Shown one piece after another: positions 2,228 through 59,039 of a stretch of DNA of 64,000 nucleotides. Origin of the DNA: a virus (lineage: Duplodnaviria; Caudoviricetes). The notes beneath the pieces are model-generated. The model made no database searches. It saw nothing but the letters and a program-made list of their open reading frames with translations, and was not told the origin of the DNA. Positions within the stretch are counted from its first letter, which is position 1; the number at the start of each line of letters is the position of its first letter. The position numbers and the translations under genes were made by a program. The stretch is from positions 356 through 64,355 of the IMG/VR virus record IMGVR_UViG_3300028558_000029. One strand, 5' to 3'.

Positions 2228-2958
2228 ACCAGACTCTCATCACCTCCAGCTCGTTCATAAAGGATGACGCGCGGGCGCAGCTGGTCAGGCTGTGGGCCGA
2301 CGTGCTGAACAAGCTGACGCCGCCGGACTGGCCGGTCATCCTGTTCGACAACGATTCGCCGATCAGCGCGGCTTCGGTGCTGGCCGACAAGGGGTTCGTC
2401 GAGCTGAAACATGATGAGCCGTGGGCACCGCACATCAAGCGGGCCATCGTGGTCAACCGCGAGCCGAACAAGTACCTGCTAAACGGCTCCGACCACTGCA
2501 CCGATGCCATTCTGTCGGCGGTCGAGGAGGGTGCGTGGACCGGCATGGAGTACGCGCTCTATCTGGAGAGCGACATGATCCTGGCCCGGAAGCCGGAGTG
2601 GATCGTGGACCGGATGCAGACCTACGGCATGCTGTGTACGAGCGCATGGAGCAAGATGCACGACTTCGTCGAGACCAATATCATGGGGTTTCACGTGAAA
2701 CAGTGCGCTGCCATGGGTCTGGTCGAGGCGTGGCGCAAGCACGAGCGGCGCGGCGGCGAATGGCCGGAGGTATGGTTCGAGAAGTTCTTCGGCGACAATC
2801 TGCATATCCTTCCGCTGCGTGGCGACCGCGATGATCGGCATGAGTTGACACGTTTAAACTGTTTGTACGCCTATCCGCGCGGCTGGGACTATCTCACCCA
2901 CTGCGATGATCTGGCGGTGTATCGTGAACTCCTGGCCAGGAATGGGGTGGAGGTATGA
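2224..2958 (+). CDS. putative GT-A glycosyltransferase-like protein
   Basis: VILFDNDS and ALYLESD (DxD-like) motifs; lies among glyco genes. Confidence 0.55.
   Translation: MNQTLITSSSFIKDDARAQLVRLWADVLNKLTPPDWPVILFDNDSPISAASVLADKGFVELKHDEPWAPHIKRAIVVNREPNKYLLNGSDHCTDAILSAVEEGAWTGMEYALYLESDMILARKPEWIVDRMQTYGMLCTSAWSKMHDFVETNIMGFHVKQCAAMGLVEAWRKHERRGGEWPEVWFEKFFGDNLHILPLRGDRDDRHELTRLNCLYAYPRGWDYLTHCDDLAVYRELLARNGVEV
2687..2702. promoter_or_regulatory. parS-like palindrome GGTTTCACGTGAAACA
   Basis: 15/16 match to consensus TGTTTCACGTGAAACA, inside a CDS. Confidence 0.7.
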
Positions 2959-3428
2959 AGATTCCGGAATGGCTGCGCCTACGCCTGCTCGCCTACGCTC
3001 GCCGCACCATGGCTTCGCGGCCCGCTGACTTCGTCATCGCGCCGTATGACGAGCCGTACCTGTACCGCTGGCATATCATCAAGACCAAGTGGTTCAGCCT
3101 GTATGTTCACAAGATGGTTCACGACGATGACGATCGCGCTCTGCACGACCATCCTGGCGACAATGTCAGCGTGTTGCTGAGTGGCGCGTACTACGAGCAT
3201 CTGGAGAATAGGCGTCGCATATCGCGAATCCAGGGTGACATGCTGTACCGGAAGGCCGAGGAGAAGCATCGTCTGGAGATGGTTTTTACAGAACAGACCA
3301 TCTCGCTCTGGGTTGTCTTCCACAAGCGTCGCGTCTGGGGCTTCTGGCCAGACGGACAGTTCGTTCCGTGGCATGACTTCGTCGACCAGGATAGTCCGGG
3401 TCGGGTGCGTGCGGATAGGAGGGTGTGA
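2955..3428 (+). CDS. cupin-fold phage protein
   Basis: YLYRW...LHDHP...LSGAYYE...H.L...WGF. Confidence 0.7.
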   Translation: MKIPEWLRLRLLAYARRTMASRPADFVIAPYDEPYLYRWHIIKTKWFSLYVHKMVHDDDDRALHDHPGDNVSVLLSGAYYEHLENRRRISRIQGDMLYRKAEEKHRLEMVFTEQTISLWVVFHKRRVWGFWPDGQFVPWHDFVDQDSPGRVRADRRV

Positions 3429-3637
3429 TGGGGAGGAAGAGGGTGCCCCTGCCGGGCCTGTCGATAGAGCTTCTCCATATGCTAAGGAACGACATGGGTT
3501 CAGAGATGAACGCGACGGTCCTGATGGCGGAAGCGTTTAGAGAGCACCTGGTCCATGAGGGCTGGCGCGTCCTGCCGCCAATCCATCACCGCAAGCCGAA
3601 GCCTGACGAAAGACAGATCGAGATGTTCGATGAGTAA
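3425..3637 (+). CDS. hypothetical protein
   Basis: Coupled ORF. Confidence 0.6.
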   Translation: MMGRKRVPLPGLSIELLHMLRNDMGSEMNATVLMAEAFREHLVHEGWRVLPPIHHRKPKPDERQIEMFDE

Positions 3638-3878
3638 GCAATCAATCGCGAATCAGTTCCGCACCATGGCCGAGCGCATCGAGGCCGCCGAGGAGAGCGA
3701 GTTCGGCGGGGCTTTTGTGATCGTTCCGCCGGACGGTGAGCAGGCTCTGATCGCAATGGTCACGTCGAACGACGGCGCGGCCGACATGTTCTACCTGCTG
3801 CTCGCCACGCAGGTTCAGAAAGAGCGGGACCGCGTGGACGCGAAGCGGCCGGGCGGCATGGGGATCAGGGGGCGGTGA
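3630..3878 (+). CDS. hypothetical protein
   Basis: MSKQSIANQFR start, coupled to neighbours. Confidence 0.65.
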   Translation: MSKQSIANQFRTMAERIEAAEESEFGGAFVIVPPDGEQALIAMVTSNDGAADMFYLLLATQVQKERDRVDAKRPGGMGIRGR

Positions 3879-4399
3879 AATACCGCGTCATCCTCGCCGA
3901 TCCGCCGTGGTCCTTCGCCACCTGGAGCGACAGGGGCAAGGGGAAGTCGGCTGACCGGCACTATTCGGTCATGACCCTGAATGATATCTGCCGCCTGCCG
4001 GTCGCCGACCGGGTTGAGGACGACGCCGTCCTGTTCCTGTGGGCGACTTGGCCGACGATCTTCTGGTCGCAGAAGGTGATCGAAGCCTGGGGCTTCACCT
4101 ACTCTGGTCTGGCCTGGGAGTGGATCAAATTCAACCCCGTCACCGGAAAATACGCCTTCGGTTGCGGCTACGGGACGCGGAAGAACGTCGAGCCGTGCCT
4201 TCTGGCGAGGCGCGGCAAGCCCGTTCTGAAGAACCGGTCGGTGCGCGACTTCCTGTTTTCGCCGCGCCGCGCCCATTCGCAGAAGCCGGACGAACAATAC
4301 GGGTTGATCGAGGCTATGTTCGACGGTCCGTACCTCGAAATGTTCGCGAGGCAGCGCCGATTCGGCTGGGATGCGTGGGGAAACGAGGTGCCGGGGTGA
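3875..4399 (+). CDS. MT-A70 family adenine methyltransferase
   Basis: ILADPPW, LFLWAT, WGF.Y, HSQKP, LEMFAR, WGNE motifs. Confidence 0.92.
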   Translation: MKYRVILADPPWSFATWSDRGKGKSADRHYSVMTLNDICRLPVADRVEDDAVLFLWATWPTIFWSQKVIEAWGFTYSGLAWEWIKFNPVTGKYAFGCGYGTRKNVEPCLLARRGKPVLKNRSVRDFLFSPRRAHSQKPDEQYGLIEAMFDGPYLEMFARQRRFGWDAWGNEVPG

Positions 4400-5556
4400 G
4401 TCTGTTCGAAAACGCTGACCTGATTGTCGTCGGCGCTGGCTTTTTCGGCCTGACAATCGCCGAAAGAGCCGCATCAGCCGGCTTCAACGTCACGATTATC
4501 GACAAACGCAGCCATTCCGGCGGCTCCGCGAACGCCTATTTCGACAAATCTACCGGAATCGAGGTGCATCGCTACGGTCCGCACGTCTTCCACACCAATT
4601 CCGACGATGTCTGGAACTACCTTTCGCGCTTCACCGGCTGGTATCCCTATACGCAGCGCACCTGGACGGTGGCGCGCGGCGGCGTCTGGCCCCTGCCGGT
4701 CAATCTGGCGACGATTTCGCTCTATACCGGCGCTGCGATGTCGCCTGGACTGGCGAGGAACTGGGTCGAGCAGCATGCGGCCGAGATCAGGGGTCGGCCT
4801 GGCAATCTGGAGGAGAAAGCCATCGCTTCGATCGGCCGTCCGCTCTACGAGCTGCTGATCAGGGGCTACACGGCCAAGCAATGGGACACCGATCCGAAGC
4901 TGCTGCCGCCGGAAACGGTGGCGCGCATGCCGGTGCGCTACACCTACGACAACCGCTACTTCACCAGCAAGTATGAGGGCCTGCCGATCGACGGCTACGA
5001 CACTATGTTTTCCAGGATGGTGAACCAGGACCATATCAGCTTGTATGTCAACACGGAATGGGACGAAGTTAAGTCGCTGCGTTCGGATATACCGGTCGTT
5101 TACACGGGTCCGGTCGACGCCTATTTCGGCTATCGCCTGGGCCGGCTCAACTGGCGGGTGGTCGATCTGGAGATGGAGCGTCTGGCCGGCGACTTCCAGG
5201 GAATTCCAGTCATGTACTATGCCGACGAGCACATTCCGTTCACTCGCATCAGCGAGTTCAAGCACTTCCGTCCCGACCGTGACTACGGAGAGGAAACCAT
5301 CATCGCTCGCGAGTACAGCCGGGCGGCGGTGCCGGGGGATGTGCCTCACTATCCCGTAAATACGCCGGGCGATCGCATGCTCTACGACGCCTACGCGACC
5401 ATGGCGCGGTCTGAACCGAACACGTTCTTCGGCGGACGGCTGGCGACGTATCGCTACCTGGATATGCACCAAGCGGTGGGATCGGCGCTGAAGATGTGGT
5501 CCAACCAGATAGAGCCGCAGCTATCTAATCGTCATAATCGTACTATCCGCGCATAG
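4396..5556 (+). CDS. glf: UDP-galactopyranose mutase
   Basis: VVGAGFFG FAD motif, HRYGPHVFHTN, YT.KQW, GRLATYRYLDMHQ; GTG start overlaps upstream TGA. Confidence 0.95.
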   Translation: MSLFENADLIVVGAGFFGLTIAERAASAGFNVTIIDKRSHSGGSANAYFDKSTGIEVHRYGPHVFHTNSDDVWNYLSRFTGWYPYTQRTWTVARGGVWPLPVNLATISLYTGAAMSPGLARNWVEQHAAEIRGRPGNLEEKAIASIGRPLYELLIRGYTAKQWDTDPKLLPPETVARMPVRYTYDNRYFTSKYEGLPIDGYDTMFSRMVNQDHISLYVNTEWDEVKSLRSDIPVVYTGPVDAYFGYRLGRLNWRVVDLEMERLAGDFQGIPVMYYADEHIPFTRISEFKHFRPDRDYGEETIIAREYSRAAVPGDVPHYPVNTPGDRMLYDAYATMARSEPNTFFGGRLATYRYLDMHQAVGSALKMWSNQIEPQLSNRHNRTIRA

Positions 5557-5592: not shown

Positions 5593-7512
5593 GTGGCTAT
5601 GGCCGATCTTGTCGAGAGCGGGGCTTGGACGCCGGAGAAGGTTGCTGCCTTCCGGGCCGGTTTCTACGAGTTCCTGAAATATGTCGTCATCAACTCGAAG
5701 GATACCGGCGGCCTCACGGTCATGGCCGACAATATCTATTTTGCGCAGCAACGCTTTCTCGACTCCGTGTTCGACGGGCTCTCTGAAGATGTTCATGACT
5801 TCAAGGCCCTGAAGAGCCGACAGCTCGGCATCTCCACCATCTCGCGAGCCCTCGCCCTCTTCTGGCTCGGCGTCCATCCCGGCCTCCAGGGCGCGATGAT
5901 CTTCGACACCGACTCCAACAAGGAAGTGGCGAGGGCAGAGATCACCACGATCCTGGACAATCTGCCGGCTCGCTTCGGATTCCCCGGAAAGAAGAGCGAG
6001 AACCGCTACGGCCTGCGCCTGTCCAACGACAGCTTCCTCCGCTTCATGTCAGCCGGTGTGCGTTCCAATCGCTCCAGCGGTACGCTGGGCCGGTCGAGCG
6101 GCCTGAACATGGTCTGGGCCAGCGAAATGTGCAGCTGGGAAAACCCGGAAGGTATCGTCTCGCTCCGGCAGGCGCTGTCCGACAAATACAAGGACCGACT
6201 CTATATATGGGAGTCGACGGCGCGCGGCTTCAACGACTGGTATCGCATGTGGCAGGACGCGCGGGCCGATAGCCTGACCCAGCGCACCGTGTTCATCGGC
6301 TGGTGGGCGCGCGAGGACCAGCGCTTCGTCAAGGGCTCCAAGGGCTTCGATCTGTACGGCCTGGAGCCGCCAACCGAGGGCGAACAGGAGAAGATCGACG
6401 CGGTTCGCGACCAGTATGGCTACGAAGTCGACCAGGAGCAGCTGGCCTGGTATCGCTGGAAGTCCAATCCGATCGCCGCCGACGATGACGAGTTCGATGG
6501 CGAAGGCGAGGAGAGCGGCTATCTCCAGCAGGACCAGCCCTGGACCGAAGACGAAGCGTTTATACAGACCGGAAGCCAGTTCTTTCCGGCCGACAAGCTG
6601 ACCCAGATCACCAAGGAAACCGTAACCGACAATTACAAGCCGTACTATTTCGTGCCGGCCACCGAGTTCGTCTACATGCAGGTTCATCCGGCGCTGAACC
6701 GCCGCATGACCCAGCTCAAGGTGTGGGAGGAGCCCGACGAGCACGGCCACTATGTCTTGTCCGGCGATCCGGCCTTTGGCCACAACGAGAAGAACGATCG
6801 CTCCGCCCTTCAGGTGCTGCGCTGCTATGCCGACTGCGTAGAGCAGGTTGCCGAGTTCGCCAGCCCGAACTTCCAGCCCCACCAGTTCGCCTGGGTCATG
6901 ATGAGTCTGGCCGGATGGTACAAGAACTCACGCTTGATCATCGAACTGAACGGACCCGGAGAGGCCATGCTGCGCGAGATGCAGCAGCTGCCCGCCGTGA
7001 TCCAGCGTGGCTACCTGCGCCCGGTGGCCGAGGAGCTGGGGCTGAAGAACATCTTCAGCAACGTCAGACACTATATATATACGAAGACCGATTCGATGGG
7101 GGCCGGTCACGTCCTTCATTTGAAGACCAACAGCTCGCTCAAGGTCACCATCATGGAGCGTTGTCGGGACTTCACCTCGACCGGCCGGCTGATCATCCAT
7201 TCCAGGGACCTGATCGACGAGATGAAGACCATCCGTCGCGAGGGGGACAAGATCGAAGCCGAAGCATCCAACAAGGACGACCGGGTCTTCTCAATGGCCA
7301 TGGGGCTGCGGGCCTGGGAGCAGGCTGAGCGCATGGCCCTGGTGTCGCAGGGCAAGACTCGCGCTGTCGAGAACGCCAAGAAGCAATTCACCCTGGCCGA
7401 TCAGATGGCCCTGCTCAACAAGATGCAGATCGAATCGTTCTTTAAACGTAAGATCGCCACGCGCCGCAATCTGGCGGCGGACTTGCGTCGCAACACCTGG
7501 AGATATCGCTGA
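5593..7512 (+). CDS. terL: terminase large subunit
   Basis: KSRQLGIST Walker A, WESTARG, GDPAFG..ND.S, IIELNG, DDRVFS nuclease motifs. Confidence 0.92.
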   Translation: MAMADLVESGAWTPEKVAAFRAGFYEFLKYVVINSKDTGGLTVMADNIYFAQQRFLDSVFDGLSEDVHDFKALKSRQLGISTISRALALFWLGVHPGLQGAMIFDTDSNKEVARAEITTILDNLPARFGFPGKKSENRYGLRLSNDSFLRFMSAGVRSNRSSGTLGRSSGLNMVWASEMCSWENPEGIVSLRQALSDKYKDRLYIWESTARGFNDWYRMWQDARADSLTQRTVFIGWWAREDQRFVKGSKGFDLYGLEPPTEGEQEKIDAVRDQYGYEVDQEQLAWYRWKSNPIAADDDEFDGEGEESGYLQQDQPWTEDEAFIQTGSQFFPADKLTQITKETVTDNYKPYYFVPATEFVYMQVHPALNRRMTQLKVWEEPDEHGHYVLSGDPAFGHNEKNDRSALQVLRCYADCVEQVAEFASPNFQPHQFAWVMMSLAGWYKNSRLIIELNGPGEAMLREMQQLPAVIQRGYLRPVAEELGLKNIFSNVRHYIYTKTDSMGAGHVLHLKTNSSLKVTIMERCRDFTSTGRLIIHSRDLIDEMKTIRREGDKIEAEASNKDDRVFSMAMGLRAWEQAERMALVSQGKTRAVENAKKQFTLADQMALLNKMQIESFFKRKIATRRNLAADLRRNTWRYR

Positions 7513-10013: not shown

Positions 10014-10208
10014 TCTCCGATCAAATCGCGCTGATCTTTAATAACACCCTTAAACTGTTTAATCAACCTGTTGATGTTTACACCCACTCAAGCCGAACAT
10101 GCGGGCACCCAAGGCAACCGCCTTCCTGCTTCCTCACGGACGCAAGATCGGCGGCTGAAAAGAGGAATCTCTTGGGTTTGTGCAACTCCAGCAGGAAGGA
10201 AGTTTGTC

Positions 10209-13692: not shown

Positions 13693-14415
13693 GTGCTTAA
13701 CACCTACATCGCGCAAACCCAGAGGCTGCTTCAGAATCCGGTCCCGTCGACCCCGCTTTACGCGACATCCGATCTGACGGCTTACATCAACACCGCTCGC
13801 GGCCAGATCGCGGGCGAGGCCCAGTGCATCCGGACGATTGGGCAAATTCCAACTGTCGTCGACCAGCGTCCCTATGCCTTCTCGGCTATCGACGTGACCT
13901 TCGCGACCGTTGGCATCCACGGCGTCCAGGGCGTGCTGTCGATCGACAATATCCTGACCGGAATCGGCACTGGCATGCAGTGGTTCCGGTCCAGGCCGTG
14001 GCCATGGTTCCTGCTTTACAAGCTGAACAACGCCAATCCGCAGGAAGGCCCGCCGTCCGAATGGGCGCAGATCGGCCAGGGCGCGAGCGGAGTCTTCTAT
14101 CTCGATCCACTGCCTGATAGCGTTTACACGCTATATGTCGACAGCGTGTGCTACCCTGTCGCGCTGGTCGACGACACGACGGCCGAGGCGCTGCCCTATC
14201 TGTGGACCGATGCGGTTCCGTATTTCGCGGCGTATATGGCCTACATGTCGTCCCAGCGCACGCAGGACGCCGACGCCATGTACAGCAAGTTCAAGGAATT
14301 CATGGCCAGGGCACGCGCTGCGGCGACGCCGGAAGTGCTGGCCCCGAACTATTCGCAAGGTCCCGACCCGGTGGCGGCGAACAGGCTTGGCATCAGGTCT
14401 GGGGGTGGGCAGTAA
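13693..14415 (+). CDS. head-tail adaptor protein 1
   Basis: YINTAR...W.DAV.Y.AAY; position. Confidence 0.7.
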   Translation: MLNTYIAQTQRLLQNPVPSTPLYATSDLTAYINTARGQIAGEAQCIRTIGQIPTVVDQRPYAFSAIDVTFATVGIHGVQGVLSIDNILTGIGTGMQWFRSRPWPWFLLYKLNNANPQEGPPSEWAQIGQGASGVFYLDPLPDSVYTLYVDSVCYPVALVDDTTAEALPYLWTDAVPYFAAYMAYMSSQRTQDADAMYSKFKEFMARARAAATPEVLAPNYSQGPDPVAANRLGIRSGGGQ

Positions 14416-15335: not shown

Positions 15336-17410
15336 TGGCTGACGAACGCGGCGGCTCTCTTCCGGCGCATCCACCACAGACGCCGGGCTTTCCTGGCAAC
15401 CCCATGCCCATCGTCTTCGATGGGTTCAGCGGGATGAACACGAAGCCGTCGCGCCCGGCTATCGAGGACCAGCAAGCCTTCTGGTCTGACGGCTTCATGA
15501 TGATCGGGCCGAACAACGCCAGGACCCTGCCTGACGTTGGCCCTGCCATCTACATGGCCCCTCCGGGCCAGCTATCGTTTTTCGGCTTCGCCAATATCGG
15601 CGACACGCCGTACTCGATTGCCTTCCTGTCCACCGGCTCCATTGTCGCGATCAACACCAACACGACGATGACGACCAGCGTCGCGCCGGCCGGAACCATT
15701 CTGAACCCGGCCAATCAGATCGGCCTGAGCCAGTGGGGCAGCCAGTACGTCCTGATCTGCGCGCCGCAGACCAATGGCTACTTCATCTGGGATGGCACGA
15801 CGCTCTATGAGGCCGGAACGCTCGGCCCAACCGTCCAGATAACCGACGACGGTGCCGGCTACACCTCGGCCCCGACCATCAGCGTGATCGGCGGAGCCGG
15901 CTCCGGAGCGTCGCTGGTCGCGACAGTCACCAACGGCGGCGTCACCGCCATATCGGTGGTCAATCCAGGCACCGGCTACCAGTTTGAGGATCAGCCCTAT
16001 CTGGCCTTCTCTGGTGGCGGATCGAACACGACGGCGATCCTGACCGCCACGATTTCCTCTGGGACAATCGCATCGATCAACGTCGTCAATGGTGGCACCG
16101 GCTACACCAGTTCAGGGGCGGTGGTCGAGGTTATGGGGGGCGGCGGAACCGGCGGTGCGGTGACGGTCGGCATCAGTGGCGGGGCCGTCAATTCGACGAC
16201 CATCACGGCAGCTGGCGAGGGCTACCTGACACCACCATCGATCTATGTGACCGATCCAAACAATTCGGTTGCCGAAGCGACGGTCAACGTGATGCCGTTC
16301 GGCATCCAGGGCACCGGATTGGAAACCTACCAGGGCCGGGTATGGATCGTTAATGGCGCGGCTCCGACCATCCCGCCGCCGCGCGGGCTGGTCCAGTTCA
16401 GCGCGCCCGGCGCGCCAGACGACTGGTCGGCCGGCAATGGCGCGGGCTCGTTTGTTTCGACCGACTCGTTCCTCCGTGTCGGCTTCCACGGGATCAAGCA
16501 GAGCAACGGCTTCCTGTATCTGGTCGGAGATTCGTCGCTGAACTACATCTCGAACGTCCAGCAGTCGACCGGCGTGCCGCCGATCGTGCAGTTCAGCAAC
16601 CAGAATGTCGACCCGCAGATCGGCTCGCCTTGGCCGAACACGGTCCAGGTGTTCAGCCGAAATGTGGTGTTCGCCAATCCGTTCGGCGTTCACGTCTCCT
16701 ATGGCGGGGCCGTTACCAAGGTCAGCGATGCGCTGGATGGCGTTTACACGACAGTTCCGAACTTCGGCAACTCCAACCCCAGCTCGGCCATCGCCGACAT
16801 CTTCGGCATCCGCGTCTACATGCTGTTGCTGCCGATCATCGATCCGATCAGCCTCGCCCAGGTCAACAAGCTGCTGCTGTGGGACGGGAAGAAGTGGTTC
16901 GCGGCCTCACAAACCATCGGCCTGACCCAGGTTTCGTCGCAGGAAATCAACTCGGAGCTGACTTCGTGGGGCACTGACGGGACCGGCATCTATCCACTGT
17001 TCCAGCTGCCGAGCGGCTCGCTTCAGAAGGTGATCGAGTCCAAGCTGTGGGACTTCCCTGGCTACGACTGGACCAAGACGGCGCTGCGCCTGTATGGCAT
17101 GGTCTTCTATTATTCGCTGGTATCTCCCGATCTGGTCATCTCGATTGACACTTCGGTTGCTGGCGTGTCCCAGCAGATCGTGGTGTCCGGAACCACCATC
17201 AAGATTTTCAACCAGTTCGGAGCGCTTGTTCCGGTGTTCAACAATGTTGGAGCGCCGGTCAATGTAGGCGGCGCGGTCCTGAATGTGTTCGGACCTCTAC
17301 CGACTTCCCAGGCCGGGCCGCTTATCGGGTTGACACTCACTACCGACGCGGCCGATATGGTGCTATTGTCCCTGAAGATTTGGGAACGCGCTACCCAGGC
17401 GAACCTGTAA
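15335..17410 (+). CDS. tail nozzle / DNA stabilisation protein (P22 gp10-like)
   Basis: FSGMNT N-terminus, beta-rich 691 aa, position after adaptors. Confidence 0.7.
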   Translation: MADERGGSLPAHPPQTPGFPGNPMPIVFDGFSGMNTKPSRPAIEDQQAFWSDGFMMIGPNNARTLPDVGPAIYMAPPGQLSFFGFANIGDTPYSIAFLSTGSIVAINTNTTMTTSVAPAGTILNPANQIGLSQWGSQYVLICAPQTNGYFIWDGTTLYEAGTLGPTVQITDDGAGYTSAPTISVIGGAGSGASLVATVTNGGVTAISVVNPGTGYQFEDQPYLAFSGGGSNTTAILTATISSGTIASINVVNGGTGYTSSGAVVEVMGGGGTGGAVTVGISGGAVNSTTITAAGEGYLTPPSIYVTDPNNSVAEATVNVMPFGIQGTGLETYQGRVWIVNGAAPTIPPPRGLVQFSAPGAPDDWSAGNGAGSFVSTDSFLRVGFHGIKQSNGFLYLVGDSSLNYISNVQQSTGVPPIVQFSNQNVDPQIGSPWPNTVQVFSRNVVFANPFGVHVSYGGAVTKVSDALDGVYTTVPNFGNSNPSSAIADIFGIRVYMLLLPIIDPISLAQVNKLLLWDGKKWFAASQTIGLTQVSSQEINSELTSWGTDGTGIYPLFQLPSGSLQKVIESKLWDFPGYDWTKTALRLYGMVFYYSLVSPDLVISIDTSVAGVSQQIVVSGTTIKIFNQFGALVPVFNNVGAPVNVGGAVLNVFGPLPTSQAGPLIGLTLTTDAADMVLLSLKIWERATQANL

Positions 17411-18183
17411 TGCCCCTACCAATCATATTCGGCCCACTTACCAGCATCGTCACGACCTACTTCGACGAGAACTTCGCCGCCGTGGGCGAGCTGGTGATTG
17501 CGCCGTGCTCGATTGCCGGCACGAACTCACTGGTCCTGACGCCGTTCGCCAACAATCCGACCGTATCGCTCTACGGCAACTACATGGTGTTCAGCGGTGT
17601 CGCGTCCGGCACCAACACCACGGCGGTCACAGCACAGCTCCTCGGGCTTGGCACATTGCCAGTTTACACGGATACAGCCGGCGGCCCGGTGGCGCTGACT
17701 GGTGGCGAGATCGTCATCGGCAATCTGGTGATGCTGGTCTACGACGCCAATCTTGGTGGCGGCGGCGGCGGATTCCACCTCCTGTCCAGTTCTCAGGTCC
17801 AGCACTTCACGTCGCTGGCGGTTTCTGGCCTGCTTACGGCCGGAACGGTTTCGGTCAGTGGAGCCGTTACCGCCGCCACCGTGTCGGCGACCTCGCTTGT
17901 GGTCGGCGGCGGGGCGGCTGTAAAGCATGTCCTGTCAGCCACCGCGTCGCTCACCTTCGCCTCGATCGTGCCGGGGGCCAGTCAGGACCAGACCGTGACC
18001 GTGACCGGAGCTGTGGTCGGCGACGGTGTATTCCTGGGGATGCCGGCTTCGGTTACGGCTGGGGTTGCCTACGATGGCCGCGTCTCGGCCACCAACCTTG
18101 TCGTGGTTCGCGCGACCAACGCCACCTCTGGAACGGTGACGCCGGCAGCCGGAACTTTCCGCGCGGTTGTCATGGGCTTCTGA
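17410..18183 (+). CDS. tail-associated structural protein
   Basis: Beta-rich; FDENF N-terminal motif; position. Confidence 0.6.
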   Translation: MPLPIIFGPLTSIVTTYFDENFAAVGELVIAPCSIAGTNSLVLTPFANNPTVSLYGNYMVFSGVASGTNTTAVTAQLLGLGTLPVYTDTAGGPVALTGGEIVIGNLVMLVYDANLGGGGGGFHLLSSSQVQHFTSLAVSGLLTAGTVSVSGAVTAATVSATSLVVGGGAAVKHVLSATASLTFASIVPGASQDQTVTVTGAVVGDGVFLGMPASVTAGVAYDGRVSATNLVVVRATNATSGTVTPAAGTFRAVVMGF

Positions 18184-18524: not shown

Positions 18525-19120
18525 TCGATCTTCAGCCTGCCGTCGTTCCTGTCCGTCGCGGGCGTCCGCCTAGGAAGGACATCGAAGGAATCGAGCGAAC
18601 CAAGAATCGCTTCGATGTCCTGGAGGACAGGGACACAAGCCGTCCAGAGCCCGTCCCTGAAAACCGACAGGAAGTCGTCTTCGATACGACAACCAAGGCC
18701 GATTTGTCGGTCACTCGCTTCATGTATGAGGACCTGCTGACCATAGGCCCGTGGCTGGCAATGCGGCTGCGCATGGATCGCCGGCCAGACCTGTCCGACC
18801 GAATGGTCATCGGGTGGCTGCGCGGCTGCATGGACAACAATCTATTCTGCCTGCTGAAGAACGAGAATGCGGTCGGTCTGGCCCAGATCACCTACGATCC
18901 GCTTGACCCGCGCCCGGTCCTGGAAGAGCTGTTCGTTTACACGAAAGACGGCTGCGAGGCCGATGGTTTGCCGATCCTCGACCGCTTCATCGAATGGGGC
19001 AAGCAGATGCAGGCTTTCCGCGTGGTCTTCGGGGGCGAGAGCGATGTCCCCGGACAGATGATCGAGGAGAGGTACGGGCGCACCAAGCAGAGGGTGTCGC
19101 ACTACCTGCCGCTAAAGTGA
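18521..19120 (+). CDS. hypothetical protein, possible GNAT-like fold
   Basis: EELFVY...L..F.EWGK pattern; position before ejection genes. Confidence 0.55.
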   Translation: MIDLQPAVVPVRRGRPPRKDIEGIERTKNRFDVLEDRDTSRPEPVPENRQEVVFDTTTKADLSVTRFMYEDLLTIGPWLAMRLRMDRRPDLSDRMVIGWLRGCMDNNLFCLLKNENAVGLAQITYDPLDPRPVLEELFVYTKDGCEADGLPILDRFIEWGKQMQAFRVVFGGESDVPGQMIEERYGRTKQRVSHYLPLK

Positions 19121-35977: not shown

Positions 35978-35981
35978 TCGT

Positions 35982-39022: not shown

Positions 39023-39030
39023 GTTTACAC

Positions 39031-40521: not shown

Positions 40522-40635
40522 ATGAAGAAGACCAAGCCCAGGAAGCCACGGATACGGTGGTCGGTGCGCCCGGTGACGAAAGTCATTCCGGACAAGCGCA
40601 ACCGGCCACCGCGTTTTCGCGCGCCTATCGTTTAA
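40522..40635 (+). CDS. 37-aa highly basic peptide (MKKTKPRKPRIRWSVRPVTKVIPDKRNRPPRFRAPIV)
   Basis: ATG 3 nt after last tRNA CCA; no SD; contains long hairpin. Confidence 0.5.
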   Translation: MKKTKPRKPRIRWSVRPVTKVIPDKRNRPPRFRAPIV

Positions 40636-40813
40636 ACTTAACGATCCGACGGCACTCCGCCAGGACAACATTGTCCTCCCCGACCCACCCGATCCGCTCA
40701 CGATTACAGGCCAGCTCGGTTTCAAACTGGCCTGTAGCCATGCTCCAGCAGTTTGGCTGCCGGGTGACCTCAGACCACCCGGCGCACCACACTATGAGCA
40801 ACGTGAAGGTCAC
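40625..40813 (-). CDS. small Cys-containing hypothetical protein
   Basis: GTGA-coupled to 40810 gene; hydrophobic N-terminus. Confidence 0.5.
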   Translation of the reverse strand: MTFTLLIVWCAGWSEVTRQPNCWSMATGQFETELACNRERIGWVGEDNVVLAECRRIVKFKR

Positions 40814-42214: not shown

Positions 42215-43056
42215 CCCTACGCATCGTATCGGCCGATGAGCGTCTGGCCCAGCTGACCAAGAAGGATACTGTCGCCATCTTTGGTCCGGTTTCGTCTGGG
42301 AAAACCAGCCTGCTCCGCACCATCGATCCGGCGACCGTGCTGGTAATCGACATGGAGTCGGGCCTGCGCTCGGTCAGTGACGTGCCTTTTGACACGGCGG
42401 CCGTCAAGTCGTTCATGGACTTCGCTGACCTGTCGGTGATCCTCGGCGGACCGAACCCGGCGCTGCGAGCGCAGGACCTTCTGTCCAGCGCCCACTATGC
42501 GGCGGCCATCGAACGGCAGGGCAAGATCGACACCAGTAAATACAACCTTCTGTTCGTCGACAGCCTGACCGAGCTGACGCGGCTGGCCGCCCAGTACGTC
42601 AAGACGCTGCCCGGCTCCATGGTCGAGAAAAAGAACAGCGGCGGGCAGATGATCGACGACAATTTCTTCGTCTATCGCGAGCTGGCCGGCGGCGTTCTGG
42701 GCTGCCTGCGCCACCTTCAGCACAATGCGCCGATGACCGTAGTCATGGTCGGCATCCTGGAACAGCGCACCGACGACTTCAATCGCGTGACGTGGCAGCC
42801 GCAGATGGCAGGCGCGGCGATCGGCCGCGAGCTGCCCGGCCTGCTCGACCACGTCTTCATCCTGAGCCAGTTCAACTATGAGAACGGTTCGTTTACACAT
42901 GCCCCCGGTATCGGTGAGCATCGCTGTTTCGTCACCCAGGTTCCCAATAGCTGGGGCCTGCCGGCCAAGAGTCGCAGCCAGCATCTTCTCGACGTTGTCG
43001 AGAAAGGCGACCTAGGCTACATCCTTTCCAAGATCAACGGAGGTAAGCAAGCATGA
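42211..43056 (+). CDS. AAA_24/Sak4-like ATPase
   Basis: GPVSSGKT, IDMESG, FVDSLT, AKSR motifs. Confidence 0.88.
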   Translation: MTLRIVSADERLAQLTKKDTVAIFGPVSSGKTSLLRTIDPATVLVIDMESGLRSVSDVPFDTAAVKSFMDFADLSVILGGPNPALRAQDLLSSAHYAAAIERQGKIDTSKYNLLFVDSLTELTRLAAQYVKTLPGSMVEKKNSGGQMIDDNFFVYRELAGGVLGCLRHLQHNAPMTVVMVGILEQRTDDFNRVTWQPQMAGAAIGRELPGLLDHVFILSQFNYENGSFTHAPGIGEHRCFVTQVPNSWGLPAKSRSQHLLDVVEKGDLGYILSKINGGKQA

Positions 43057-44262: not shown

Positions 44263-44489
44263 TGGCAAAATTCCGTGAAGTCCGTGACATCGCGCTTCGA
44301 ACGCTCGCCGATCACGGCGTCGACGACTATTCGATCGAGCCGACCGGCAGCACTCACTTCCGATTGCGATGGGAGCACAATGGCAAGAAGCTGGCCTACA
44401 TGCTGGCCGCATCGCCATCCGATCGACGTGTAAACAAAACTATTCGGGCCGACCTTCGGCGAATGATGAGGGGGATTAATTATGAATGA
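44262..44489 (+). CDS. HicA-like small protein
   Basis: GSTHFRL.......ASPSDRR pattern. Confidence 0.5.
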   Translation: MAKFREVRDIALRTLADHGVDDYSIEPTGSTHFRLRWEHNGKKLAYMLAASPSDRRVNKTIRADLRRMMRGINYE

Positions 44490-44673: not shown

Positions 44674-45435
44674 GTGATCGACACTAATCACGGCAGCGGC
44701 TACGTGCCACAGGCCCCAGCCCTGTCCCCAACAGAGCGTGTAAACATAGCCATAGACAGCGCTCTGGTTTACCGCCAAAGCCTCCAGACGCCGCGCGCCT
44801 ATCTGGGCGGGTCCAGGCTCGGCGAGCCATGCTCCAGGCTGCTGTGCTACGAACTGATGGGCGTGCCGGCCGACGAGGGCAGGGAGTTTACCGGCCGGAC
44901 TCTGCGCATATTCGAGGTTGGGCACCGGTTCGAAGCGATGATGGCCGACTGGCTGACGCAAGCCGGCTTCGGTCTGCGCATCGCCAAGCGAGATGGGAGT
45001 CAGTTCGGCTTCAGCATCGCGGGCGGCAAGATCGCCGGACACATCGATGGTGTGATCACCGATGGGCCTGTCTTGGAGGTTCCGTACCCGATCGGCTGGG
45101 AACACAAGTCGCTCGGCGACAAGGGGTGGTCGAAGATCGCCAACCACGGCCTGCGCCTGGGAAACGAAACCTATTTCGGTCAGGTCCAGATTTACATGGC
45201 CTACATGGACTTGCCAGCCTTCCTGTTCACCGCGATCAACAAGAACGACGAGTCTATCTACGCCGAGATCGTTCGTTTCGATCCGGCTGCGGCCCAAGCC
45301 CTGTCAGACAAGGCGGTGACCATCGTCAGCGCTGTCGAGCGCGGCGAGCTGCTGTCCAGGATCGCCAGCCAACGCGATTTTTACAAATGCCGCATGTGCA
45401 ATCATCAGGACCGCTGCTGGTCTGATCCAAACTAG
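44674..45435 (+). CDS. Cas4-like PD-(D/E)xK exonuclease
   Basis: YLGGSRLG.PC.R, GHIDG, EHKS, QVQIYM, C..C.....CW. Confidence 0.85.
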   Translation: MIDTNHGSGYVPQAPALSPTERVNIAIDSALVYRQSLQTPRAYLGGSRLGEPCSRLLCYELMGVPADEGREFTGRTLRIFEVGHRFEAMMADWLTQAGFGLRIAKRDGSQFGFSIAGGKIAGHIDGVITDGPVLEVPYPIGWEHKSLGDKGWSKIANHGLRLGNETYFGQVQIYMAYMDLPAFLFTAINKNDESIYAEIVRFDPAAAQALSDKAVTIVSAVERGELLSRIASQRDFYKCRMCNHQDRCWSDPN

Positions 45436-48263: not shown

Positions 48264-48602
48264 ATGGCTCCGCCAATCACCGTCTGGACTCCAGACCGCG
48301 TTGCCAAGCTGCGCGAGCTATTCGCCGCCGGCCTCCCTGTGGGTGCTATCGCCAAGCAGCTGAGCACTAGTAAAGCGAGTGCTTACGTGCATCTTCTCAA
48401 GCTGGGCCTGTCGACTCGCGCTAGACGCAATCTCAGGCCGCTCGACGAGCGCAACCGAACCATCCTCGCCATGTTCGAGGCTGGTTACCAACGGAAGGAA
48501 ATAGCGGCCGAGCTGGGCCTGACATCCTGCCACATCGGCAATCTGCTCACAACCTTCGGACTGAGCATCCGGGCACGCAACAAAGAAAGGAAAACAAAAT
48601 GA
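48264..48602 (+). CDS. GcrA N-terminal-like HTH protein (two HTH units)
   Basis: WTPDRVAKLRELFAAGL....IAKQL. Confidence 0.7.
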   Translation: MAPPITVWTPDRVAKLRELFAAGLPVGAIAKQLSTSKASAYVHLLKLGLSTRARRNLRPLDERNRTILAMFEAGYQRKEIAAELGLTSCHIGNLLTTFGLSIRARNKERKTK

Positions 48603-48943
48603 AGATTCTCATCTTTGGTGGCTCCAACAGCCACAATGTCTATCTGGTCTACAAAACGCTGACTCCGCTTCACCGGAGCAAGCCGATCACCAGCGTCGCC
48701 CACACCAACGAATCCGGTATCGGCCGGATCATCGCCAAGTGGGCCAAACAGCACGGGGTCGAGGAGATCGTTTACACGCCATCCTGGTACGACCAGAAAG
48801 AGCCGGTCCTGCGCAACGCCATGCTGCTGGCATTCGAGTCGCCGGACGTGGTTATCGCCATGTCCGACGACCTCGCGACACGCAATCTGGTGGCCATGGC
48901 GCGCAAGAATCATATCAAGACACTAGAGGTGGGGTCAAAATAG
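48599..48943 (+). CDS. DUF2493/YspA SLOG-like protein (degenerate)
   Basis: MKILIFGG...WA...GV......W......RNAML...PDVVIA. Confidence 0.7.
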   Translation: MKILIFGGSNSHNVYLVYKTLTPLHRSKPITSVAHTNESGIGRIIAKWAKQHGVEEIVYTPSWYDQKEPVLRNAMLLAFESPDVVIAMSDDLATRNLVAMARKNHIKTLEVGSK

Positions 48944-51851: not shown

Positions 51852-51875
51852 GGTAGTGTGTAAACGGTTAGTGGT

Positions 51876-52292: not shown

Positions 52293-52318
52293 TGTGATAG
52301 ATCCTTTAGTTTAAACGT

Positions 52319-52786: not shown

Positions 52787-52871
52787 GGTCTGGTTCCTAT
52801 CGGTTAGGCTGGCACCGCAAAGCCCCGCCAATGGGGCTACCACGGGCGGGGCGGGGCGGGGCTAGGTCTGA

Positions 52872-53237: not shown

Positions 53238-53942
53238 TTATCGAATCCACTCGGTGGTGAAGATCGCGTTTGCGTAGGGATCGCGGTCTGGCGACGTGAC
53301 GGCGAGTCGCTTCGCTGCTTTCGCGACCGGATCGGCCGCTTTCGGCTTGTGTCCGGTCTTCAGTTCGGCGTAGGGCCGGACTGGCAGCTTGGGCGGATTC
53401 GCCGCTTTCTCCGCTTTCACTTTTCGTGCGTTTACACGAACAAACTCAAGAACAGCCTCGGCTTGCGATAGCTCGAGTGGACGGGGCGGAGTCGCCTGTG
53501 AGCGGAGGAAGAAGAACGATTGGGCGAATCGCCGTGCTGTCTCGGTTCCCCCGAATCTTTCCAAGTGCTGGATTCCGGCTTGTGGGTCGGACAGGACCAT
53601 GTGGACGTTGGGGAAGTGATAGACGTGAACCGGGCGCGAGGCGGGATGCGCGCGCGTTCGCAGGTTAAGGATAGCGTCGCTGGCTAGCACGATATGCTGG
53701 CGGACATACCGATTGACGCTGCCGTTTCGAACGAACGCAACGATATGGTCGCCGAAATCGCCGATAGCGGCGATAACGGTTGATTCGCTGTTGCCGGTCG
53801 GGCGCGAGTATAGAACCTGACATACCATCGCCTCCGATCTCTCCGGGGATGTTCGGAGCGTCTGGTGACGATTCGTCATGCGGCGACTCGTCATGTTGAC
53901 AAAGCCGTAGATGATCTGGGCATTCGTGAAAGCGCGGGGCAT
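53238..53942 (-). CDS. hypothetical protein
   Basis: AAGGAG SD, 234 aa. Confidence 0.7.
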   Translation of the reverse strand: MPRAFTNAQIIYGFVNMTSRRMTNRHQTLRTSPERSEAMVCQVLYSRPTGNSESTVIAAIGDFGDHIVAFVRNGSVNRYVRQHIVLASDAILNLRTRAHPASRPVHVYHFPNVHMVLSDPQAGIQHLERFGGTETARRFAQSFFFLRSQATPPRPLELSQAEAVLEFVRVNARKVKAEKAANPPKLPVRPYAELKTGHKPKAADPVAKAAKRLAVTSPDRDPYANAIFTTEWIR

Positions 53943-53968
53943 GGTTGAGTCTCCTTTAGTTTAAACGG

Positions 53969-55018: not shown

Positions 55019-55047
55019 GGGTTGACTCCTATTTCGAGTGGAATGGT

Positions 55048-56415: not shown

Positions 56416-56532
56416 GTCCTGTTTCCTCTTGTGCGGCTTGCTGGCGGGATTGCCGGCTTACCTGACGCCTTGGCCCGGCGCGGGGTTGTCATGTCCCGGC
56501 CGGGCTGGCGATTGGCTTGTGGTGGCGTTGGG

Positions 56533-57141
56533 CTAGTCGCCCGCGTCGCCACCATCAACGCCCATTTCGCCATGGTTAGGGCAATGCGGTGCGCCAACGT
56601 CGGTTAACCATTTACGTGTCGTCCGAACCACGTAACCACAATCGCCGCATTCGCATTTGACCATACGAGTCGTCTGCTTCTTCTCGCCTTCTGGCATGGC
56701 AATGATGCGAGCGTGCGGGATGTTGCCCAGGTCGGCGATGACTCGTTGCGCGTGCCGTGTAAACGACTCGCCGGCCTTTGTGGCTGTCGCCTTGCCTTCC
56801 AGGCCGATGGATCGGACAAGCGGGACAAACGGCCCCTTGTGTCCGACTCCTGGCCCAAGCGCCAAATGGGCCAACTCATGGGCCAGCGTCGCCAGCACGT
56901 CCACCGAGTCCACGCGGTCAAGGCGTGGCGAGATGAATATCTGGCCGATGCCGTCAGCCGTTGCTGTACCGTGCCACGCTTGCCCAATGATGGCTTTGCG
57001 GGCGCGAGTCCCGCCCTTGTCCGGCCATCCGATGCTGATTCGTACCTGTCGGGGCAGGGGATGGCCGGCTTGAGCGTAGAGCGGGCGCAATTGCTCGGTT
57101 GCGCGCTCAAGCCATGCTTCGCGAGTCTGGGGTTGCGACAC
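56533..57141 (-). CDS. SprT-like HExxH metallopeptidase with C-terminal Zn ribbon
   Basis: TREAWL, LAHELAH...GHKGPF, KQTTRMVKCEC..CGY. Confidence 0.8.
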   Translation of the reverse strand: MSQPQTREAWLERATEQLRPLYAQAGHPLPRQVRISIGWPDKGGTRARKAIIGQAWHGTATADGIGQIFISPRLDRVDSVDVLATLAHELAHLALGPGVGHKGPFVPLVRSIGLEGKATATKAGESFTRHAQRVIADLGNIPHARIIAMPEGEKKQTTRMVKCECGDCGYVVRTTRKWLTDVGAPHCPNHGEMGVDGGDAGD

Positions 57142-57145
57142 GGTG

Positions 57146-57802: not shown

Positions 57803-58018
57803 TTAGCGTATGCGCAGAATGTCTGCCGGCGATTCGCCCGTATCCTCTCCCCATTGATCGCGCGGCGCGAGGCGCTGTCCGCTGCTATTGTAGTCAGCCC
57901 CGCAATCGTCACAGGTGTTCGTAAAGCCGCGCAGCACAACATGCGCATTGCAGTCGCACCGCCCGACTCGCGGGGATCCGGGATATTCAGCATTGCGCTG
58001 TCTGATAATCATGATCAT
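57803..58018 (-). CDS. small Zn-binding hypothetical protein
   Basis: CDC...CDDCGADYNSSGQ.LAPR.QWGE.TGE; first gene after promoter. Confidence 0.7.
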   Translation of the reverse strand: MIMIIRQRNAEYPGSPRVGRCDCNAHVVLRGFTNTCDDCGADYNSSGQRLAPRDQWGEDTGESPADILRIR

Positions 58019-58064
58019 TTGTTCTATCTCCGTTCCTATCGCGGTCAGCCGCGATGGCCCATTC

Positions 58065-58093
58065 AAGCTAGTGCAAATCTGCACCGGTTGCAA
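58065..58093 (-). promoter_or_regulatory. leftward promoter TTGCAA-17-TAGCTT with operator GTGCAAATCTGCAC in spacer
   Basis: Operator at 58071-58084. Confidence 0.65.
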
Positions 58094-58526
58094 GCCTCGC
58101 GATGAGAGGAATCGCCCACTCGCACGAATGCAATGGTTGTGCCATGGCGATTCCAGCGTCGATTGAGCGGCGGAATCCCCCATCGCCGACATGAGACAGA
58201 ATTGCGTGTAATGGCAAAATGTATAGCAATGTCATGGCGTTATGTTGAAACTCTCAACCATGCGAGTGTTGACTGAGTCCACAACATTTTGATCGATCGA
58301 TGGCTATTCGGTGGGTCGATTAGGATTCTGACCGCCCGGAAAGCCGCAGAAACCCTGGATTTAGGTGCTGAACTGGCGAAGGCAAGTTTTAAGCTATAAC
58401 TGGCCGGTCAGGATCAAACCGGCCTGTAGGCCTGTTAAAACGCAATTGCGGGGCTATGGGGTTTGCGTGGTTGTGGCGACTGGTGAGAGAGGCGAGTCCA
58501 TCAATCGAAAACATCGATTGATCGTG

Positions 58527-59039
58527 CTAGCGCTGATTCCAGCGGCGCCCGGAGCGGGGGATTGATCCTTCGCCATCGCGTTGTCTGACGATCATGGCTC
58601 CACCCATTCGAGCGATCACGGCCTGCTGTCGGATGATCTCAGAGTCGATCTCTGCGAGTATGGCGATTGCATCATTTACACGTTCAGCAATGACGTGTCG
58701 TAGGGCTGCCAGAGCAACGATTGGCGCATGTCTTCCGTACCTGTGCCACCGCTTAACCGTGATGGTGGAGTAGCCTGGCACAAGCATCTGAATGAGTTTC
58801 CATCGGCCAGGGCAATCCCAATGTGTTGCATATGGAGCGAGCCACATAACCGCCCGTGACCAGGGGCCGCGTCCTGCCTCAATAGCCGGGGACGACTGCC
58901 ACCGGGCTTCGCGCCTGATGCGGTTTCTGTTTACACGATCTACTCGCTCCGCGAGCGCGGCGCGCACAGCGTCTGGCGCGGGAATTGCATTGGCGCGCGG
59001 AACTGGCTTGACGAGGGTGGATGTGGCGTCTAGTGGCAC
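58527..59039 (-). CDS. possible hypothetical protein
   Basis: 170-aa ORF in an otherwise non-coding gap; weak SD. Confidence 0.35.
   Translation of the reverse strand: MPLDATSTLVKPVPRANAIPAPDAVRAALAERVDRVNRNRIRREARWQSSPAIEAGRGPWSRAVMWLAPYATHWDCPGRWKLIQMLVPGYSTITVKRWHRYGRHAPIVALAALRHVIAERVNDAIAILAEIDSEIIRQQAVIARMGGAMIVRQRDGEGSIPRSGRRWNQR

Follow-up and report, generated by a model that had tools for sequence, protein, structure and literature searches.

What reads a short, exact word that recurs along the whole of a phage genome? Genomes have few ways of labelling themselves, and dispersed exact words are one of them; Chi, uptake sequences, parS, stoperators and nick sites are examples, and each known word of this kind has revealed a machine that reads DNA genome-wide. 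The question is raised by the virus record IMGVR_UViG_3300028558_000029, a phage genome of 64,355 bp rated complete by CheckV, of which bases 356-64355 were analysed (the window, 64,000 nucleotides; positions below are those of the window). A preliminary description, made by eye, had pointed to an over-represented octamer, GTTTA(C/A)AC, and had proposed a dispersed binding site for a phage or host protein. Here we describe 26 copies of the word, the selection that acts on them and the proteins that may read them. Our preferred reading, which we hold with a probability of about 40%, is that the copies form a genome-wide array of double-stranded DNA recognition sites that would be read by a sequence-specific, non-catalytic DNA-binding protein made by the phage.

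The word and its enrichment

The commonest form, GTTTACAC, is found at 17 sites (12 on the plus strand and 5 on the minus strand), where 100 shuffles that preserve dinucleotides give 0.50 ± 0.72 (maximum 3). A palindromic variant, GTTTAAAC, is found at 6 sites, against 0.26 ± 0.50 expected (maximum 2). Every one of the 23 coordinates that the preliminary description had given for these two forms is correct, as are its statements that the word is over-represented and present in both orientations. A third form, GTTTATAC, occurs at 6558 on the plus strand and at 27943 and 34291 on the minus strand, against 0.26 expected; three copies were reached in 1 of the 100 shuffles, and these sites are probable members of the word family. 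The G variant, GTTTAGAC, has no site in the window. Among all single-base variants base 6 is the sole variable position (C at 17 sites, A at 6, T at 3 and G at none), and the word is therefore GTTTAHAC, with 26 sites in 64 kb, or about one per 2.5 kb. The remaining 355 bases of the record, outside the window, hold no further copies. The non-palindromic sites stand 13 on the plus strand and 7 on the minus strand.

Under an order-3 Markov model, a check that had been suggested with the preliminary description, GTTTACAC is the top 8-mer of the genome (17 observed vs 0.95 expected, z 16.4) and GTTTACACG the top 9-mer (13 vs 0.29, z 23.7); the top 8-mers of five other phage records reach z values of 7.8, 8.3, 13.1, 7.7 and 8.9. 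The flanking c...g seen by eye is a real preference, with C at position -1 in 16 of the 26 sites (T 7, A 3, G 0) and G at position +1 in 14 (A 6, T 5, C 1), while the sequence within 40 nucleotides on either side of the 26 sites carries no information beyond these two positions. With its flanks the word was taken as (C/T)GTTTA(C/A/T)AC(G/A/T), in 26 copies. Forms bearing the word include CGTTTAAACT and the 10-mer CGTTTACACG, which has 7 copies in the 64 kb of the phage, and GTTTAGAC serves as their G-variant counterpart. In a literature search for the word together with "phage", the titles among the matches listed appear unrelated to phage motifs.

Other words are also over-represented in the window, namely CAAGCTG (37 vs 12.7 expected), ATCCACTC (9 vs 1.3), CCGTATCCAG (5 vs 0.13) and CTAACCGT (5 vs 0.8). 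Two copies of CTAACCGT stand directly before copies of GTTTAHAC.

Selection acts on the word as DNA

Most copies lie inside genes, as had been noted by eye: 17 of all 26 sites are fully coding, and 14 of the 23 sites listed earlier, in our own model of 76 genes, which was used for the coding/non-coding split and for the shuffles. In 300 synonymous shuffles that keep the proteins and the codon usage of each gene, intragenic sites number 1.43 ± 1.15 (maximum 6), against the 17 observed. The enrichment thus survives the amino-acid- and codon-preserving comparison on which the preliminary description had staked its proposal, and it is therefore no by-product of composition, protein sequence or codon bias.

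The cost of the word can be read from the codons. All six Val-Tyr-Thr tripeptides of the proteome are written GTT-TAC-ACG, where GTT, TAC and ACG have shares of 19%, 60% and 30% in their codon families; by our own arithmetic, codon usage would give this outcome with a chance of ~1.6e-9. The word is also present in 3 of 7 x-Phe-Thr-[LPHQR] contexts and, in antisense, in 3 of 8 [CSRG]-Val-Asn contexts, and these copies draw on codons as rare as GTA (6%) and ACA (11%). At five of five alignable orthologous positions, relatives have Ile-Tyr-Thr, Ala-Tyr-Thr, Val-Tyr-Lys, Leu-Tyr-Val or Met-Phe-Thr, in different codons; therefore amino acids have been altered to create the word.

The direction of transcription does not matter to this selection. 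The intragenic sites are 10 sense, 5 antisense and 2 palindromic, and three reading frames are in use. When permissive contexts are counted, the word is held by 10 of 37 sense contexts (27%) and by 5 of 20 antisense contexts (25%; Fisher p = 1.0), and selection is indifferent to both transcription direction and reading frame. Equal conversion of sense and antisense contexts speaks for a signal in double-stranded DNA, and against an RNA element, an oriented promoter or an oriented roadblock.

Recognition also appears to be all-or-none, because one-mismatch words are at background level. In a model with the 26 sites masked, the 51 one-mismatch words total 26 occurrences vs 30.9 expected, and the three member words are 29-, 28- and 10-fold enriched. 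An apparent depletion of near-variants (8 vs 20) was rejected, since the motif itself had inflated the Markov model behind that estimate. Positive selection on the word as DNA is strong, and its footprints are unusually clear. This part of the earlier proposal, a dispersed DNA-level recognition site under selection, appears to hold, as does its statement that the word matches no named system.

Placement and spacing

Non-coding DNA makes up 13% of the window in our gene model and holds nine of the 26 sites (binomial P = 0.005). Three of these nine (35980, 52309 and 53959) begin 2 nucleotides past a stop codon, and two of these (52309 and 53959) directly precede the TAAAGGA(G) ribosome-binding sites of two leftward genes. 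The palindromic form has 4 copies vs 5 of the C form in non-coding DNA and 2 vs 12 in coding DNA, where it is rare because of its TAA and its need for rare codons. The sites are also more even than chance would place them: the coefficient of variation of their spacing is 0.66 vs 0.95 for random positions, with 2% of 5000 simulations equally even, and the smallest gap between sites is 310 bases. The non-coding excess, the sites in tiny spacers and the even spacing together point to selection for many, well-spread copies, acting on the number and spread of sites and not on particular positions.

Three pairs of sites, 18935/19386, 23202/23651 and 51858/52309, are 451, 449 and 451 bases apart (P ~0.002 by simulation, post hoc), and the last pair encloses exactly one gene. 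Repeat cassettes were considered as the source of these spacings and rejected, as the segments between the sites share no similarity.

The array in relatives and strains

Close kin of the phage were found only as strain contigs. Megablast of 20 kb of the phage against isolated phages gave no match, and IMG/VR searches with the capsid, primase, MT-A70, HTH_17 and 48264 proteins and with gene 53969 returned distant relatives or none. The major capsid protein is common to eight IMG/VR loci at 56-80% identity, with most other shared proteins at 31-64%. Whole-record scans of five capsid relatives (29.9, 29.0, 17.0, 5.2 and 4.7 kb) found 0, 0, 2, 0 and 0 copies of the word, and relatives whose capsid protein is 75-80% identical have 0, 0 and 2. 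These relatives, and likewise G001, G002, G808 and G809, lack a top word of comparable strength. Across the 110 loci examined, 88 are without a copy, and more than two copies are found only in a contig of the same phage.

That contig, L001 (5.7 kb, 99% identical), keeps 3 of 3 sites, and a 5-kb metagenome contig, L109, at 90% nucleotide identity keeps 2 of 2 alignable sites with changed flanks; this sample of close strains is too small for an estimate of rates. The phage is held in 21 public runs, all labelled rhizosphere metagenome, and contigs from 4 of them show strain variants of it. Judged from these sequences, the array is private to this phage lineage and maintained in it.

The strains differ elsewhere as well. 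L001 is without the cysteine-dioxygenase-like gene at 2955-3428 and has ~160 other bases instead, and in L109 some 1.1 kb of unrelated sequence replaces 1.4 kb of the window (19124-20555). One further relative, G003 (L097), has the 6-mer GTTTAC in mild excess (13 vs 5.6; P = 0.005 before any correction for 18 tests) as well as three copies of AATTAATT. In this relative, where positions 691-711 and 9660-9700 were singled out, an inverted CGTTTAC pair stands 8 bases apart near the start of the contig, and a 22-base palindrome immediately precedes the promoter-like hexamers of the HTH_17 gene that G003 itself carries; the palindrome is not dispersed.

Candidate readers

The leading candidate for a reader is the product of the HTH_17 gene (9726-10013, minus strand), a predicted winged-helix protein of 95 residues, on which we would place about half of the probability given to a non-catalytic phage protein. 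It owes this place to one copy of the word, GTTTACAC at 10076..10083 (plus strand), in the divergent control region beside the putative promoter of the gene, 9 nucleotides upstream of a -35-like TTGATT that is followed after 17 nucleotides by TATTAA. Homologues that are 24-28% identical and have the same helix-turn-helix pattern are found in four relatives (G001, L005, G002 and G003), and the gene keeps its place in them, between the putative portal gene and the head genes and opposite to these in strand. In G001/L005 and G002 the 6-base core GTAAAC stands 9 nucleotides upstream of TTGACG/TTGACC-17 nucleotides-TAGCGT/TATCGT before the homologous gene, the hexamers here too being assigned by eye. 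The recognition helix reads VSHDWL in our phage and VSRAYL in G001/G002, a difference that would fit a shifted specificity. The preliminary description had listed the 9726 product among several possible binders, and the conserved promoter-proximal copy lends that suggestion some support.

An AlphaFold model of the protein, built from five sequences, has a helix-turn-helix and a wing (mean pLDDT, the predicted local confidence score, 65; ~80 in the core). Its best matches in the PDB are to the RdfS excisionase (E 0.0024, 31% identity), RacA-DNA, BldC-DNA and the mycobacteriophage Pukovnik Xis, that is, to MerR-like winged-helix proteins of the RacA-ram/BldC/Xis type (PDB 5i44, 6ama, 8dgl and 4j2n). 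These likenesses are weak, and the DNA sites of those proteins are other words. A role as excisionase is unlikely for the phage protein, because no integrase is present. RacA, one member of this group of folds, has some 25 binding sites scattered over the chromosome, and BldC forms multimers on repeats.

A second candidate reader is encoded at 48264..48602 on the plus strand, a protein of 112 residues with two predicted helix-turn-helix motifs (one like the N-terminus of GcrA, one like GerE and sigma-70 region 4). The 40810 product (40810-41625), also named earlier as a possible binder, had no match in an Atlas search. A reader of the ParB kind would be expected from known docking arrays, but a six-frame search of the phage for ParB_N (PF02195) gave no match at E ≤ 1, where the control found the domain in 11 of 14 genomes; in this the array is unlike the ParB/KorB docking arrays and the KorB operators of IncP plasmids, which it resembles in its even spacing, its freedom of orientation and its near-palindromic form within genes, and whose sites are longer (13-16 bp). 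The same kind of search for the GntR domain (PF00392) gave none either.

How might a single operator have become an array? In the mechanism that we propose, the ancestral site would be the copy beside the promoter-like hexamers of the HTH_17 gene, which is what makes this protein the leading candidate, and the array would have grown in this lineage from that one regulatory site. Because the word is AT-rich and its setting GC-rich (59-62% GC along the whole window), it should be rare in the DNA of a likely host, and an array of it could tag the phage chromosome as "own". From evenly placed docking points the reader could give order to the replicating phage DNA, shield it or time its expression. 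A bolder form of this proposal, which we regard as unlikely, is that the array represents a new self-marking system, in which a host-rare 8-bp word provides loading points for a Xis/RacA-like, non-ParB protein. Such a protein would coat, compact, shield or time the replicating chromosome of an apparently virulent phage, from nearly even 2.5-kb intervals paid for with rare codons and amino-acid changes, and the array would be of recent origin, by multiplication of one operator. If true, it would be a non-ParB solution to the marking of phage chromosomes, and if the reader is a small winged-helix protein, a single operator would have expanded to a chromosome-wide array within one phage lineage. 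The word lends itself to direct tests, as its 26 sites are defined and its candidate proteins are small and number two or three.

Several observations weigh against a non-catalytic reader, and against HTH_17 in particular. The link between this protein and the word is based on one promoter-proximal site, with hexamers recognised by eye, and its matches in the PDB span E values of 0.002-0.06, none at or below 0.001. The relatives with HTH_17 homologues (24-28% identical) carry no dispersed array. The L009 clade has GTTTAC/GATTTAC in the equivalent spacer with no HTH_17 gene there, and G003 has a different, unrelated palindrome at that position. For neither HTH_17 nor the 48264 protein did the IMG/VR searches turn up a close relative. 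Finally, that the word has no halo of weaker variants at all is a better fit to enzymes of the restriction-type, nicking or methylating kind, or to helicase-nucleases, than to most transcription factors.

Alternative explanations

On the features tested, the word fits none of the known systems of dispersed words. It is filed here under no named system because no ParB_N, GntR or integrase domain was found in the phage and no enrichment in the bacterial genomes sampled; the known systems nevertheless supply the explanations that compete with a phage-made, non-catalytic reader.

A serious, if doubtful, contender is that the word is the target of a phage DNA enzyme, a nickase, methylase or other base modifier, that would leave marks on virion DNA every few kb. 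An exact word with one degenerate position and no enrichment of one-mismatch variants is what such an enzyme would read, and an 8-bp near-palindrome belongs to the size class of restriction-type enzymes; GTTTAAAC itself is the PmeI site. The phage encodes MT-A70, HNH, VRR-NUC and Cas4-type nuclease domains, and genes of its leftward operon with glutamine-amidotransferase-like and amidoligase-like features (the latter a lead only) could modify nucleotides.

In sharpness and copy number the word comes closest to the nick word of Pseudomonas phage tf, for which the available part of the report describes 14 nicks at TACT/RTGMC and only three one-mismatch variants, none of them nicked (PMC3517423). 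The likeness extends to the nick sites of the tf, T5 and phiKMV type in general, as that text presents them: the word is short and exact, is degenerate at one or two positions, has almost no near-variants and is enriched about ten-fold or more, and its sequence and number vary between related phages, the relatives of tf differing in their main nick word and its number (PMC3517423). By the same account, the function of the nick sites is not known in those phages either, and all nick sites of tf, T5 and phiKMV-like phages lie on one strand (PMC3517423). GTTTAHAC, in contrast, stands on both strands, in numbers that match the available coding contexts, and is known from assembled sequence alone.

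As for methylation, the preliminary description had tied the MT-A70 enzyme to the word, a tie that the relatives of the enzyme do not bear out: five unrelated phages, which carry the closest MT-A70 homologues (55-65% identical), have 0, 0, 1, 0 and 1 copies in 13-65 kb, although specificity may differ at that distance. The MT-A70 gene is absent from the syntenic region of three relatives without the motif. Nor is there a known reason why selection should act on the density of a methylation target. The GTWWAC methylation of Burkholderia was considered and rejected, as it covers GTTTAC and not the A and T variants in the part of the report available (PMC11380664).

We think it quite unlikely that the word is read by a host machine, either as a Chi-like signal that would restrain the host RecBCD or AddAB nuclease where it meets phage DNA ends or as a decoy that titrates a host regulator (for example of the GntR/HutC type). 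Chi-rich phages resemble this phage in the density of their octamer. In the available text on phages LLS, P1 and MD8, the word is likewise an exact top octamer, about one per 2 kb, in coding sequence, and close relatives are without it (PMC12315714; PMC3784561); LLS carries 23 Chi sites, or one every 1.9 kb, with Chi its commonest octamer, and lambda is given as having none (PMC12315714). Recognition of Chi is exact, consistent with the lack of a halo of near-variants, a circularly permuted genome would need both orientations of the word, and Chi words are described as not known for most Proteobacteria in the accessible part of one preprint (bioRxiv 10.1101/2020.08.13.249359). For the host, the protein matches of the phage point loosely to Proteobacteria.

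Chi, however, is the word of the host and is polar, and here neither polarity nor, in the genomes sampled, enrichment was found. Among 802 bacterial genomes sampled, none is enriched; as a sample, this is weak evidence and no proof of absence. One sample held 401 genomes spread evenly over one phylum (around G006), small genomes of 0.4-2 Mb and probably not of the phylum of the host; the densest had 16 GTTTACACG per 0.9 Mb, and an unpublished genome, G161, on which the result does not hinge, had 2 copies. The other held 401 Pseudomonadota (the phylum of a Shewanella genome), with at most 12 CGTTTACACG per 4.4 Mb vs 7 per 64 kb in the phage. When the five genomes highest over control were rescanned with a 10-base degenerate pattern, their ratios to control were 0.8-1.7. 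The word shows no polarity beyond gene orientation and coding contexts (13 plus vs 7 minus), against 20:3 in LLS and 32:0 in MD8, and the Chi-rich phages are reported as having no recombination module of their own (PMC12315714, available portion). Our phage, unlike them, has a Sak4-like annealing protein and a Cas4-domain exonuclease, and the known Chi words are described as G-rich (bioRxiv 10.1101/2020.08.13.249359, in part).

The decoy version draws on the operators of GntR/HutC regulators, which in the available text share the core GTMTAKAC with GT and AC 4 nucleotides apart, and so the skeleton GT-N-TA-N-AC in a compact 8-bp palindromic core (PMC4494728). That a winged-helix dimer can read this core indicates that an 8-bp word can be a protein-binding site. 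The word differs from these operators at the two variable positions, T and not-G (H) here as opposed to M and K; those operators are not known as dispersed arrays, and a GntR domain was not found in six frames of the phage.

That the word is a transcription signal, whether a promoter element for a phage sigma-like factor in the style of T4 late genes or an oriented roadblock like a stoperator, is highly improbable. Stoperators are 13 bp long, and the word is 8-10 bp and orientation-neutral. Their resemblance to the array lies in their distribution: Cluster A mycobacteriophages have 20-30 dispersed, short, asymmetric stoperators per genome (here 26 sites), many away from promoters, some in tiny intergenic spacers and all lineage-specific, as far as the available texts go (PMC6550527; PMC9283540), and they co-evolve with the repressor (PMC6550527). 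One stoperator doubles as a promoter-proximal operator, and the copy at 10076, beside hexamers read by eye, would be its counterpart here. One copy of our word heads the capsid operon, three other lineages have GTTTAC in the same spacer, and the phage has a small protein with a helix-turn-helix like sigma-70 region 4. Of 16 intragenic sites that can be oriented, 11 are sense, but this excess disappears against the permissive contexts. The word has no partner element and keeps no fixed distance to start codons; two sites abut a Shine-Dalgarno sequence, which a transcript started there would lose, one (51858) lies between a stop codon and a terminator-like hairpin, and the conversion of every Val-Tyr-Thr is not something that a promoter needs. 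Stoperators follow the direction of transcription, are bound by the immunity repressor and are a feature of temperate phages in the same account (PMC6550527), whereas this phage has no integrase in six frames, no ParB_N and no recognisable repressor.

It is hardly credible that the word acts in RNA, as a processing or binding site (GUUUACAC), or is functionless, the outcome of mutation bias, biased repair or an assembly artefact: intergenic copies do stand at landmarks of mRNA (past stop codons, ahead of ribosome-binding sites, behind the 3' end of a tRNA) and repair biased towards one sequence might in principle multiply it, but the 5 antisense sites are converted at the sense rate, one-mismatch neighbours show none of the depletion that conversion by repair predicts, the same sites recur in contigs of independent origin (L001, L109 and runs X2-X13, all other samples), and amino acids have been altered to create sites.

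The sites in their gene context

The Val-Tyr-Thr copies of GTTTACAC are all on the plus strand, and are in the UDP-galactopyranose mutase gene (5098..5105; GTT-TAC-ACG), gene 13693-14415 (14122..14129), gene 15335-17410 (16742..16749), gene 17380-18183 (17662..17669), gene 18461-19120 (18935..18942) and gene 48599-48943 (48770..48777); those at 17662 and 18935 are the ones conserved in the 90% identical L109. In the Phe-Thr frame are the copies at 19386..19393 (plus; open reading frame 18994-19875), 42891..42898 (plus; the Sak4-like gene, 42211-43056) and 56757..56764 (minus, sense in gene 56533-57213, minus strand). Antisense copies of GTTTACAC that overlie Arg-Val-Asn lie at 23651..23658 (minus) in gene 22621-25632, at 44738..44745 (minus) in the Cas4-type exonuclease gene and at 53430..53437 (plus) in the minus-strand gene 53238-53942.

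The probable members of the GTTTATAC form are in the large terminase gene (6558..6565, plus; gene 5593-7512), antisense in gene 27729-29105 (27943..27950, minus) and antisense in codons 4-6 of the endolysin gene (34291..34298, minus). The palindromic GTTTAAAC is found within genes at 2852..2859 (gene 2224-2958, flanks C..T) and at 23202..23209, in the Phe-Lys frame of the 1003-residue gene 22621-25632.

Between genes, GTTTAAAC at 35980..35987 lies between convergent genes, past the TGA of gene 35675-35977, and includes, on the other strand, the end of the VRR-NUC gene (Val-stop, GTT-TAA). GTTTACAC at 39023..39030 (plus) is directly 3' of a tRNA-Glu gene (38948-39022), and GTTTAAAC at 40630..40637 is intergenic, 300 nucleotides past the last tRNA gene. 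Two more intergenic copies of GTTTACAC are at 44428..44435 (minus), between plus-strand genes, and at 58929..58936 (plus), in a poorly coding gap (58105-59294).

Three intergenic copies stand at gene ends in the leftward operon. GTTTACAC at 51858..51865 (minus) is 10 nucleotides past the TGA of gene 51876-52292 (minus), just before a stem-loop and T-run that we read by eye as a terminator-like hairpin. GTTTAAAC at 52309..52316 follows the TGA of a 21-codon open reading frame and abuts the TAAAGGA ribosome-binding site of gene 51876-52292. This short frame (52319-52384, minus), just upstream of the site, encodes a hydrophobic peptide, has a GGAGGA ribosome-binding site of its own and is probably a gene for a small membrane protein that length filters missed. 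GTTTAAAC at 53959..53966 follows the TAA of gene 53969-55129 (minus) and abuts TAAAGGAG, the ribosome-binding site of gene 53238-53942 (minus).

Gene content of the phage

Genes were annotated from open reading frames with PHROG, Pfam and NCBIfam matches, and tRNAs with ARAGORN and Rfam. The left arm carries as accessory genes an MT-A70 DNA methyltransferase (3875-4399, plus) and the UDP-galactopyranose mutase (4399-5556). After the large terminase comes a gene for 557 residues (8051-9724), a putative portal without a family match, and beyond the HTH_17 gene the head, tail and lysis genes extend to ~36 kb. The replication/recombination block comprises the Sak4-like protein, the Cas4-type exonuclease and a primase-helicase; the leftward operon occupies 51876-57213 (minus), and the right arm holds Lar-like (59294-59662) and PurA-like (60497-61630) genes.

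Six-frame searches for Phage_integrase and Resolvase domains gave no match in the phage, which is probably virulent because no integrase of either kind is found. Family searches among 93 open reading frames showed no repressor family, and PDB sequence searches with four phage proteins without assigned function gave no match.

The tRNA island (36666-40330) has 27 genes by ARAGORN, 19 at the Rfam threshold, all on the plus strand and interrupted by an HNH endonuclease gene (39381-39932). It contains no tRNA-Val, yet every Val-Tyr-Thr uses the rare GTT codon.

Several genes may serve in conflict with the host. The product of 35166-35702 has an Acb2/Tad1 hairpin domain (Pfam E 7e-13), which suggests a sponge for cyclic-nucleotide immune signals. 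The accessory set at 3875-5556 and 59294-59662 (MT-A70, UDP-galactopyranose mutase and a Lar-like restriction-alleviation protein) is typical, by its predicted families, of defence and counter-defence or of surface modification.

In the leftward operon, 53969-55129 (minus) has an N-terminal region like class-II glutamine amidotransferases, and 55048-56415 (minus) is amidoligase-like by language-model features only (score 0.79, a lead only). The operon also includes phrog_6361, a conserved phage protein without assigned function, and its part at 53969-57213 (minus) may be a small-molecule or nucleotide-modifying module. A genome containing 2-aminoadenine (Z) was considered and rejected: the PurA-like gene (60497-61630), labelled PurZ-type by PHROG, scores 39 bits against an NCBIfam PurZ cut-off of 300. 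The same protein scores 111 bits vs 402 for PurA.

The first open reading frame of the head-gene operon (10209-10253) has 14 codons, a good ribosome-binding site and a very basic predicted peptide. In G001, G002, G003 and the L009-L012 clade the corresponding position is taken by similar tiny basic frames, with a partly conserved leader of ~100 nucleotides.

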